A stretch of DNA of 13,179 nt, taken from IMG/VR virus record IMGVR_UViG_2698536576_000003, positions 1 to 13,179 of that record; one strand, 5' to 3'. Every line of letters begins with the position of its first letter. Position 1 is the stretch's first letter. Under the pieces are notes generated by a model. That model made no database searches. It was given only the letters and a program-made list of their open reading frames with translations, and was not told where the DNA came from. This DNA is from a virus. Its lineage: Duplodnaviria; Heunggongvirae; Uroviricota; Caudoviricetes. Of this stretch, positions 7,850-10,722 are shown piece by piece. Made by a program: the position numbers and the translations under genes.

Positions 7850-8060
7850 TTTGCGGGTCCTTTCCGGCGATCCGACAGGTTACGGGGCGGCGACCTCGCG
7901 GGTTTTCGCTATTTATGAAAATTTTCCGGTTTAAGGCGTTTCCGTTCTTCTTCGTCATAACTTAATGTTTTTATTTAAAATACCCTCTGAAAAGAAAGGA
8001 AACGACAGGTGCTGAAAACGGGCTTTTTGGCCACTGTCGTTTCCTTTCTCTGTTTTTGTC
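7850..8060 (+). other. cos: lambda-type cos site (cosQ - cosN - cosB); cosN 12-nt cohesive-end sequence GGGCGGCGACCT at 7885-7896
   Basis: Exact lambda left-end sequence GGGCGGCGACCTCGCGGGTTTTCGCTATTTATGAAAATTTTCCGG... begins at 7885, preceded by ...ACAGGTTACG, and is followed by the cosB region leading into the Nu1 start at 8074. Confidence 0.9.
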
Positions 8061-8073
8061 CGTGGAATGAACA

Positions 8074-8619
8074 ATGGAAGTCAACAAAAAGCAGCTGGCT
8101 GAAATTTTCGGCGCGAGTATCCGTACCATTCAGAACTGGCAGGAGCAGGGAATGCCCGTTCTGCGAGGCGGTGGGAAGGGTAATGAGGTGCTTTATGACT
8201 CTGCCGCCGTCATAAAATGGTATGCCGAAAGGGATGCTGAAATTGAGAACGAAAAGCTGCGCCGGGAGGTTGAAGAACTGCGACAGGCCAGCGAGACAGA
8301 TCTCCAGCCAGGGACTATTGAGTACGAACGCCATCGACTTACGCGTGCGCAGGCCGACGCACAGGAGCTGAAAAATGCCAGAGACTCCGCTGAAGTGGTG
8401 GAAACCGCATTCTGTACTTTCGTGCTGTCGCGGATCGCAGGTGAAATTGCCAGTATTCTCGACGGGATCCCCCTGTCGGTGCAGCGGCGTTTTCCGGAAC
8501 TGGAAAACCGACATGTTGATTTCCTGAAACGGGATATCATCAAAGCCATGAACAAAGCAGCCGCGCTGGATGAACTGATACCGGGGTTGCTGAGTGAATA
8601 TATCGAACAGTCAGGTTAA
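8074..8619 (+). CDS. nohD: terminase small subunit Nu1, 181 aa
   Basis: MEVNKKQLAEIFGASIRTIQNWQEQGMPVLRGGGKGNEVLYDSAAVIKWY... is essentially lambda gpNu1 (winged-helix N-terminus); 26-nt overlap with the A start, as in lambda. Confidence 0.93.
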   Translation: MEVNKKQLAEIFGASIRTIQNWQEQGMPVLRGGGKGNEVLYDSAAVIKWYAERDAEIENEKLRREVEELRQASETDLQPGTIEYERHRLTRAQADAQELKNARDSAEVVETAFCTFVLSRIAGEIASILDGIPLSVQRRFPELENRHVDFLKRDIIKAMNKAAALDELIPGLLSEYIEQSG

Positions 8620-10519
8620 CAGGCTGCGACATTTTGTCCGCGCCGGGCTTCGCTCACTGTTCAGGCCGGAGCCACAGACTGCCGTTGAATGGGCGGATGC
8701 TAATTATTATCTCCCGAAAGAATCCGCATACCAGGAAGGGCGCTGGGAAACACTGCCCTTTCAGCGGGCCATCATGAATGCGATGGGCAGCGACTATATC
8801 CGTGAGGTGAATGTAGTGAAGTCTGCCCGTGTCGGTTATTCCAAAATGCTGCTGGGTGTTTATGCCTACTTTATAGAGCATAAGCAACGCAACACACTTA
8901 TCTGGTTGCCGACGGATGGTGATGCCGAGAACTTTATGAAAACCCACGTTGAGCCGACCATCCGCGATATTCCGTCGCTGCTGGCGCTGGCTCCGTGGTA
9001 TGGCAAAAAGCACCGGGATAACACGCTCACCATGAAGCGTTTCACCAATGGTCGTGGCTTCTGGTGCCTGGGCGGTAAAGCGGCAAAAAACTACCGTGAA
9101 AAGTCGGTGGATGTGGCGGGTTATGATGAACTTGCTGCCTTTGATGATGATATTGAACAGGAAGGCTCTCCGACGTTCCTGGGTGACAAGCGTATTGAAG
9201 GCTCGGTCTGGCCAAAGTCCATCCGTGGCTCCACGCCCAAAGTGAGAGGCACCTGTCAGATTGAGCGTGCAGCCAGTGAATCCCCGCATTTTATGCGTTT
9301 TCATGTTGCCTGCCCGCACTGCGGGGAGGAGCAGTACCTTAAATTCGGCGATAAAGAGACGCCGTTTGGCCTCAAATGGACGCCGGATGATCCCTCCAGC
9401 GTGTTTTATCTCTGCGAACATAATGCCTGCGTCATCCGCCAGCAGGAGCTGGACTTCACTGATGCCCGTTATATCTGCGAAAAGACCGGGATCTGGACCC
9501 GTGATGGCATTCTCTGGTTTTCGTCATCCGGTGAAGAGATTGAGCCACCGGACAGCGTGACCTTTCACATCTGGACGGCGTACAGCCCGTTCACCACCTG
9601 GGTGCAGATTGTCAAAGACTGGATGAAGACGAAAGGGGATACGGGAAAACGTAAAACCTTCGTGAACACCACGCTCGGTGAGACATGGGAAGCGAAAATC
9701 GGTGAACGTCCGGATGCTGAAGTGATGGCAGAGCGGAAAGAGCATTATTCAGCGCCCGTTCCTGACCGTGTGGCTTACCTGACTGCCGGTATCGACTCCC
9801 AGCTGGACCGCTACGAAATGCGCGTATGGGGATGGGGGCCGGGTGAGGAAAGCTGGCTGATTGACCGGCAGATTATTATGGGCCGCCACGACGATGAACA
9901 GACGCTGCTGCGTGTGGATGAGGCCATCAATAAAACCTATACCCGCCGGAATGGTGCAGAAATGTCGATATCCCGTATCTGCTGGGATATTGGCGGGATT
10001 GACCCGACCATTGTGTATGAACGCTCGAAAAAACATGGGCTGTTCCGGGTGATCCCCATTAAAGGGGCATCCGTCTACGGAAAGCCGGTGGCCAGCATGC
10101 CACGTAAGCGAAACAAAAACGGGGTTTACCTTACCGAAATCGGCACGGATACCGCGAAAGAGCAGATTTATAACCGCTTCACACTGACGCCAGAAGGGGA
10201 TGAACCGCTTCCCGGTGCCGTTCACTTCCCGAATAACCCGGATATTTTTGATCTGACCGAAGCGCAGCAGCTGACTGCTGAAGAGCAGGTCGAAAAATGG
10301 GTGGATGGCAGGAAAAAAATACTGTGGGACAGCAAAAAGCGACGCAATGAGGCACTCGACTGCTTCGTTTATGCGCTGGCGGCGCTGCGCATCAGTATTT
10401 CCCGCTGGCAGCTGGATCTCAGCGCACTGCTGGCGAGCCTGCAGGAAGAGGATGGTGCAGCAACCAACAAGAAAACACTGGCAGATTACGCCCGTGCCTT
10501 ATCCGGAGAGGATGAATGA
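8594..10519 (+). CDS. A: terminase large subunit gpA (ATPase/endonuclease), 641 aa, full length
   Basis: GTG at 8594 ([19 protein letters not shown]...) to TGA at 10517-10519; length and sequence match lambda gpA as recalled; A stop overlaps W start (ATGA). Confidence 0.95.
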
Positions 10520-10722
10520 CGCGACAGGAAGAACTTGCCGCTGCCCGTGCGGCACTGCATGACCTGATGACAGGTAAACGGGTGGCAACGGTACAAAAAG
10601 ACGGACGGCGAGTGGAGTTTACGGCCACTTCCTTGTCTGACCTGAAAAAATACATTGCGGAGCTGGAAGTGCAGACCGGCATGACACAGCGACGCAGGGG
10701 ACCTGCAGGATTTTATGTATGA
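10516..10722 (+). CDS. W: head-tail joining / head completion protein gpW, 68 aa
   Basis: [55 protein letters not shown]... matches lambda gpW; stop overlaps the B start. Confidence 0.9.

Follow-up and report, generated by a model that had tools for sequence, protein, structure and literature searches.

We analysed a stretch of 13,179 nucleotides filed as viral DNA (IMG/VR record IMGVR_UViG_2698536576_000003, positions 1 to 13,179; this whole stretch is called the window below), and we focus here on a lambda-type packaging module within it, namely a cos site followed by the genes nohD (Nu1 type), A and W. In all probability this is the packaging module of a DLP12-type prophage that has recently undergone two deletions, so that what we see is a latent remnant, neither self-mobilising nor domesticated. 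One deletion would have taken away the immunity and replication block, the other would have run from about codon 103 of the portal gene into a side-tail-fibre gene, and the time since then would have been too short for the module to decay.

The window comes from an Escherichia coli chromosome, since its positions 1-12882 are 100% identical to strain AMSCJX02 and to about ten further complete genomes. In AMSCJX02 the identical segment is flanked by tRNA-Arg (argU) and intD on one side and by cusS on the other, which is the DLP12 site, located between fimZ/argU and cus. The window itself stops short of argU, and what is said below on intD, argU and the 55 kb downstream rests on this 100%-identical AMSCJX02 locus. 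The gene order quuD-porin (nmpC)-essD-rrrD-rzpD-bor-ybcV-ybcW-ylcI-cos-nohD is collinear with that of DLP12 in the K-12 strain MG1655 at ~98% identity. With the argU integration site and the late-region gene order both found, the locus is, judging from these two features, a DLP12-type lambdoid prophage integrated at argU. Identity to phage lambda (NC_001416) is also continuous at ~98%, from window 5348 to 11028 (lambda 45967-48502 plus 1-3145), and such a continuous match is homology and not chance. RefSeq already annotates nohD, a terminase large subunit, a head-tail joining protein and a partial portal at this locus, and the kind of locus, the K-12 allele and the behaviour of the cos of the K-12 allele are already known in the literature.

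The cos site has everything that defines a lambda-type cos: cosN, cosQ and cosB, the last with R3, R2, R1 and the integration host factor (IHF) site I1 (Table 1). The names of these subsites, and the part that cosQ plays in ending packaging, follow the literature on lambda (among others PMC6092414). The 68-bp block from R3 to R2, which holds I1, is base-identical to lambda and R1 is identical as well; R2 and R1 together were picked up as an inverted repeat. All differences from lambda fall outside cosQ, cosN, R3, I1, R2 and R1. The interval between cosQ and cosN has a T-to-C change and the spacer between R2 and R1 has a 1-bp deletion, both of which recur in Turner, PhiR11_1 and 2H10, phages that have been isolated. 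The same spacer has three substitutions; two of them are found also in 2H10 and in other DLP12-type loci, and the third, an A at 8033 (four nucleotides before R1), occurs in this lineage only. The 1-bp deletion and the T-to-C change were considered as possible defects of cos, which we rejected because live phages carry them too.

Table 1 Features of the packaging module and of the right side of the head/tail deletion (positions in the window).
Feature	Position	Strand	Remarks
cosQ heptamer GGGTCCT	7855-7861	+	exact lambda match; 30-24 nucleotides before the left cohesive end, spacing as in lambda
cosN, 22-bp nicking site	7876-7897	+	identical to lambda
12-nucleotide cohesive-end sequence GGGCGGCGACCT	7885-7896	+	within the 22-bp cosN
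cosB	7937..8053	+	R3 7937-7952, I1-containing spacer, R2 7989-8004 (inverted), R1 8038-8053
nohD, lambda Nu1-type small terminase subunit, 181 amino acids	8074-8619	+	Pfam Phage_Nu1 (PF07471), 335.6 bits, full model
A, lambda gpA-type large terminase subunit, 641 amino acids	8594-10519	+	GTG start and overlap of the nohD 3' end, as in lambda
W, head-tail joining protein/adaptor, 68 amino acids	10516-10722	+	Pfam gpW, 128 bits, full model; V40L relative to lambda (67/68)
B', 5' stump of the portal gene, ~103 of 533 codons	10719-11028	+	open frame (119 codons) continues to a stop at 11078
stf', internal fragment of a side-tail-fibre gene	11027-11173	+	right side of the head/tail deletion joint
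tfa, tail-fibre assembly gene, 177 amino acids	11173-11706	+	Pfam Caudo_TAP, 153 bits; surviving right end of the morphogenesis region

The product of nohD is identical to lambda Nu1 at 178 of the 181 residues, the changes being D10E, A75T and L132I. Phages 2H10 and PhiR11_1 also have T75 and I132, which leaves D10E, a conservative substitution, as the one private residue; the phage Nu1 closest to it agrees at 180/181 positions. The protein also matches the solved Nu1 structures 1J9I and 6HN7.

The A gene differs from that of lambda at 37 nucleotides, which make 36 synonymous codon changes and one non-synonymous change (T466I), leaving 640 of the 641 amino acids identical. Both of its Pfam domains, GpA_ATPase (PF05876, 172 bits) and GpA_nuclease (PF20454, 249 bits), score above the cutoff. 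Antisense open reading frames (ORFs) within A, for example 8654-9421 and 9749-10225 on the minus strand, were set aside as spurious because changes in the frame of A are synonymous at a ratio of 36:1. A relative of gpA in the PDB was looked for by sequence and none was found. We compared gpA with 32 close homologues (69-100% identity) and with 100 distant ones (32-58% identity). Residues K76, K84, D178, E179, G212, D401, D465, E586 and D589 are all kept in the window, and their columns are invariant or nearly so in both sets; in the close set, D465, G467, G468, K76, K84, E179, G212, D401, E586 and D589 are invariant. The substitution T466I (window 9989-9991) adjoins the invariant D465, in the motif CWD(T/I)GG. 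At this position 18 of the close homologues have isoleucine, 7 threonine and 7 serine, and I466 is also the residue found in Turner and 2H10, two phages that were isolated in viable form. We therefore rejected T466I as an inactivating change, isoleucine being the majority residue among the close homologues and being present in the two phages. Position 466 can also be noted for its own sake as a subgroup-specific switch, next to a probable nuclease metal site, with isoleucine in most close enterobacterial homologues.

Full-length small and large subunits with conserved ATPase and nuclease residues are thus all found, as in the lambda terminase, and every criterion that we could apply to the sequences shows cos and the genes Nu1, A and W to be intact. 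A preliminary description of this DNA had called cos, nohD, A and W complete and lambda-like, and had proposed a comparison of A and Nu1 with lambda over their full length and a look at the terminase catalytic residues. The description holds on each point: the cos subsites are identical, Nu1, A and W have only 3, 1 and 1 substitutions, the Pfam domains are complete, and the catalytic residues have no inactivating substitution as far as can be judged by sequence.

What the prophage has lost is best seen by comparison with strain 2014C-4587. The prophage at argU is the same there, but its lambda-like head and tail genes are complete and its early region looks intact. Two deletions separate the window from it, one of a 6.6-kb early block and one that reaches from portal codon ~103 into a tail-fibre gene. 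The joint of the early-region deletion lies at window 2265-2272 with an 8-nucleotide overlap, and in the relatives 23S01245-7 and 2014C-4587 the deleted block holds genes for a LexA-family repressor, a cro-like protein, replication, a methyltransferase, RusA, KilA-N and DUF968. Annotation and the comparison with relatives gave no replication module (pri/rep/ori) between intD and quuD. In AMSCJX02, intD has an internal stop (L001 9303-10466, outside the window), and it is intact in 23S01245-7, 94-3024 and 2014C-4587. A different kind of contrast is seen at the terminase genes: between the window and 2014C-4587 (its 31232-33157) 33 codons of A differ, against 1 each in W and B', and the flanks of A are >99.4% identical. 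This contrast between A and its flanks suggests that a recombination patch may lie over the terminase genes.

At the right-hand joint, the homology of B' to lambda B and to the intact portals of 23S01245-7 and 2014C-4587 ends at 11028. B' covers only model positions 2-75 of 354 in Pfam Phage_portal_2, RefSeq calls it a partial pseudogene, and past codon ~103 the portal ORF runs into the tail-fibre fragment. This fragment, stf', is annotated by RefSeq as "phage tail protein, missing N- and C-terminus", and the right half of our junction query matches tail-fibre genes elsewhere. From window 11268 on, tfa is collinear with tfaD of K-12. The preliminary description had taken the portal to be truncated, which is the case, and all head and tail genes to be missing, which goes too far, as the tail-fibre fragment and a full-length tfa remain.

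K-12 has lost more of this region. MG1655 matches window 3010-8901 and 11268-12685 and nothing between, and 8902-11267 is missing there. K-12 has therefore kept just 103 codons of A (aaaD), which run on into tfaD, and has neither W nor B'. The preliminary description had taken the DLP12 terminase gene of K-12 to be a pseudogene and had supposed that the present locus is less decayed at this point; both statements agree with our comparison, A and W being full length here and a stump or absent there. Other argU prophages end elsewhere again: 23S01245-7 has kept A, W and a full portal gene, followed by a truncated C fused to nfrB, and in 94-3024 A is cut at about codon 495 and there are further internal deletions. 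Such scattered endpoints in 23S01245-7, 94-3024, K-12 and the window fit random decay. We also came across dozens of E. coli proteins that begin with an N-terminal part of gpA (~75-88% of its length) and continue in the same frame into a tail-fibre, portal, capsid or tail domain; lambdoid prophages thus appear, from these protein sequences, to decay repeatedly by deletions that start in A and end in late genes.

To see how common the module and the deletion are, we surveyed 5426 complete E. coli genomes, counting the block and junction probes as present at >=80% coverage. The cos-Nu1-A-W-B' block was present in 3222 genomes (59%), and a lambda-type cos region in 3984, with a median of 2 places per genome. 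DLP12 has been reported in 74% of 638 strains (PMC6379469). An intact chromosomal lambda-type cos is therefore the rule in E. coli and is not special to this locus. The exact B'/stf' joint, searched with a 300-nucleotide junction probe, was present in 14 genomes, 12 of which carry the whole 3329-nucleotide segment from cos to the joint with <=2 mismatches; the K-12 joint was found in at most 368 genomes. Strains AMSCJX02 and 13TMH22 are among the carriers of the window's joint, and the carriers CUVM3, CPww7 and F8 have two cos places each. In our view, the module owes its intact state to the young age of the deletion and to an endpoint that lies just downstream of W.

Some observations weigh against this account of a module that is simply young. 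The differences among carriers of the joint (<=2) give no power to detect selection after the deletion, so that selective maintenance is possible. Nu1 D10E is private to the lineage, although the change is conservative. As to gpA position 466, 84 of the 100 distant homologues have serine or threonine, and judging from the sequences, isoleucine is accepted there only by the close, lambda-like subgroup.

The cos-Nu1-A-W genes belong to the late operon, where quuD and the lysis genes precede them. We infer that their expression would depend on late transcription antiterminated by QuuD; if this passes through the lysis genes and cos, it would yield active terminase. A promoter of nohD's own was considered and rejected: a simple scan upstream of nohD found 12 promoter-like sites where 12.2 were expected, which is no enrichment, and a 10/12 match at 7822-7849 is no evidence of function. 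In a cell without proheads, the resident terminase could only nick the cell's own cos. If a phage of lambda specificity infects the cell, its terminase would cut the chromosomal cos at 7885 and spool rightward through nohD and A, then through cus and ent/fep. In AMSCJX02, the genome has a single lambda-type cos place, and the cosN of the locus is the only such site in the 36.9 kb around the locus and the 38 kb further downstream. No cosN-like 17-mer (<=3 mismatches) was found in the 54.8 kb downstream of cos in the packaging direction, where cusRS, cusCFBA, pheP and the ent/fep cluster are located. The idea of a second cos that serves termination was thus rejected, and because there is none, the spooled DNA would not be released and infectious transducing particles are not expected.

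The realistic role of the locus would be that of a 5.7-kb, ~98%-identical recombination substrate, from which superinfecting lambdoid phages could acquire or repair alleles of the lysis genes, cos, Nu1, A and W. For the K-12 allele such exchange is documented by De Paepe et al. (PMC3945230): DLP12 of K-12 shares 3353 bp with lambda at 98%, the frequency at which lambda takes up DLP12 DNA exceeds that for Rac or Qin ~100-fold, 10 of the 19 recombination junctions adjoin cos, consistent with terminase cutting the chromosomal cos, and recombinants with DLP12 alleles of nu1, R or Rz are viable. With ~5.7 kb of homology and full A and W, the present allele would be a somewhat better reservoir of the same kind. 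Where K-12 offers 3.35 kb, the 5.7 kb here extend from Rz and bor through cos and Nu1 to A and W, and marker rescue and the formation of terminase mosaics should be easier. The chromosomal cos is also a place where any lambda-type terminase can break the chromosome. Work by Kotani et al. in 1992 and by Murialdo in 1988 reportedly describes cutting of the E. coli chromosome by lambda terminase at a cryptic cos. Otherwise the locus matters little; it is one snapshot in the documented decay series of DLP12-type prophages, and the K-12 state with its terminase stump could have descended from forms of this kind.

It had also been proposed in the preliminary description that a lambdoid helper phage could start at this cos, package the remnant or the chromosome next to it, and thus mobilise the DNA in the manner of a satellite. 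For cos packaging to be productive, a second cos of like orientation is needed at a distance of about one genome length. The proposal has in its favour a complete lambda-type cos in a packaging-competent arrangement, the transfer of natural cos-bearing islands by lambda and phi80 (PMC6092414), and the clustering of junctions near the DLP12 cos of K-12, which suggests cutting there during lambda infection (PMC3945230). Nevertheless we consider it very unlikely and do not uphold it. The remnant (~15.5 kb) has neither a replication module nor an immunity region, intD is a pseudogene in the 100%-identical AMSCJX02 locus, and DNA that does not replicate forms no concatemer with spaced cos sites, whereas phage-inducible chromosomal islands (PICIs) achieve packaging by replicating into concatemers (PMC6092414). 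Of the features of a PICI or satellite, the remnant has a helper-type cos, but not an integrase/excision function, a replication module or two spaced cos sites; helper-interference genes (rpp, capsid redirection) are not annotated at the AMSCJX02 locus, where no dedicated search was run. The single cos of the AMSCJX02 genome, with no cosN-like site in the downstream stretch, is a further obstacle, because a cos terminase cannot make its terminal cut without a second cos, and tails do not attach while uncut DNA protrudes (PMC6687093). Moreover, cos phages are reported not to do lateral transduction (PMC12829572), and a polymerase chain reaction (PCR) check detected no excision of the K-12 defective prophages during lambda infection (PMC3945230). 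The resident A would be irrelevant to such helper-driven packaging because the helper brings its own near-identical terminase. One may still imagine that infection or induction of a phage of lambda specificity leads to in situ packaging at this cos and that a rare terminal cut or, in some strains, a suitably spaced second prophage cos then allows transfer of cus (copper/silver efflux) and ent/fep, but we regard this chain of events as very improbable indeed. If it were true, the transfer of cus and ent would resemble lateral transduction by a cos phage and would challenge the view that cos phages do none.

Two further explanations suppose that the module does something for the cell, and to neither can we give more than a minimal chance. 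The resident terminase, the cos or both could interfere with incoming phages, as a decoy that titrates the packaging machinery or by mis-cutting phage DNA. Satellites are known to manipulate the small terminase subunit (TerS) of their helpers, and Nu1 matches a "terminase small subunit" chain in PDB 6HN7, which we take to be the PICI Rpp-TerS complex. However, the resident Nu1 and A share 98-99.8% of their residues with the lambda proteins and have the same cos specificity, so that they would complement a lambda-type phage and not poison it, and a single chromosomal cos would be a negligible sink compared with the pool of replicating phage genomes. The absence of an annotated rpp-like or capsid-redirecting gene at the AMSCJX02 locus, mentioned above with its limit, also speaks against interference, as does the fact that 59% of genomes carry the same module within normal prophages. 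Alternatively, the module might be domesticated, with nohD, A and W kept by selection for a host function; nohD is indeed intact in every DLP12 variant examined, K-12 included, and A has the 36:1 ratio of synonymous to non-synonymous changes relative to lambda. This excess, though, would have arisen while A belonged to functional phages, and equally conserved copies are found in live phages. Moreover, A is truncated at different points in K-12 and 94-3024, the many E. coli fusions of the gpA N-terminus to tail or portal domains indicate frequent loss, and the lineage that bears the deletion is almost clonal. A latent module in a recently double-deleted prophage remains the reading that we prefer.

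Several neighbouring features were noted along the way. The NmpC-type porin gene (2952-4049, minus strand) is intact with 365 amino acids and is split by IS5 in DLP12 of K-12; ybcY (11761-12429, minus strand), for a class I S-adenosylmethionine (SAM)-dependent methyltransferase, is an intact 222-amino-acid ORF and a pseudogene in K-12. The sole Rfam match in the region, IS009 (RF02111, 221.6 bits), lies inside tfa at 11465-11663 on the plus strand. Window 12590-12710, which we call tfaX', repeats the 3' end of tfa (11560-11680) and is ~90% identical to the 3' end of K-12 tfaD, with 88% in 94-3024; judging from this repeat, it is a second, decayed copy of a tail-fibre-assembly gene flanking ybcY. 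The last 297 bases of the window (12883-13179) are the left end of IS1, inserted after tfaX'. This IS1 at 12883 is absent from the closest complete genomes, and hence none of the complete genomes is the one from which the window was taken.

When we compare the locus with known systems, it has in common with lambda the identical cosQ, cosN, R3, I1, R2 and R1, the way in which the genes overlap and the GTG with which A begins. Unlike in lambda, the module is stranded here, with a truncated portal gene and without the capsid, most tail and the replication genes. The argU prophages of the 2014C-4587 type and phages Turner, 2H10 and PhiR11_1 have the same late region and packaging module at 98-99.4% identity, and gpA I466, Nu1 T75 and I132 and the cos spacer variants are common to them and the window; they carry a full head/tail set and an early region, whereas the window is a double-deletion derivative. 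The cos-bearing PICIs such as EcCICFT073 have, as here, a helper-type cos recognised by the lambda or phi80 terminase (PMC6092414). They have an integrase, a regulator, their own pri/rep/ori and concatemers, none of which the remnant has, while the remnant encodes its own terminase. Cosmids likewise carry a helper-type cos but replicate as plasmids, which the remnant does not. The "doc" particles of lambda arise by in situ packaging of a prophage that has not excised; packaging starts at the chromosomal cos and the particles' DNA has one cohesive end. Rightward packaging into host DNA would be expected alike in both cases, but the prophage of the doc particles is complete, is induced and supplies the heads, whereas here a helper would be needed. 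Compared with DLP12 (qsr') of K-12, the early regions differ, and A is a stump, W and B' are absent and the porin gene and ybcY are disrupted there, but the two loci share the site between argU and cus, the order from quuD to nohD at ~98% identity, a lambda-type cos and an intact NohD of 181 amino acids.

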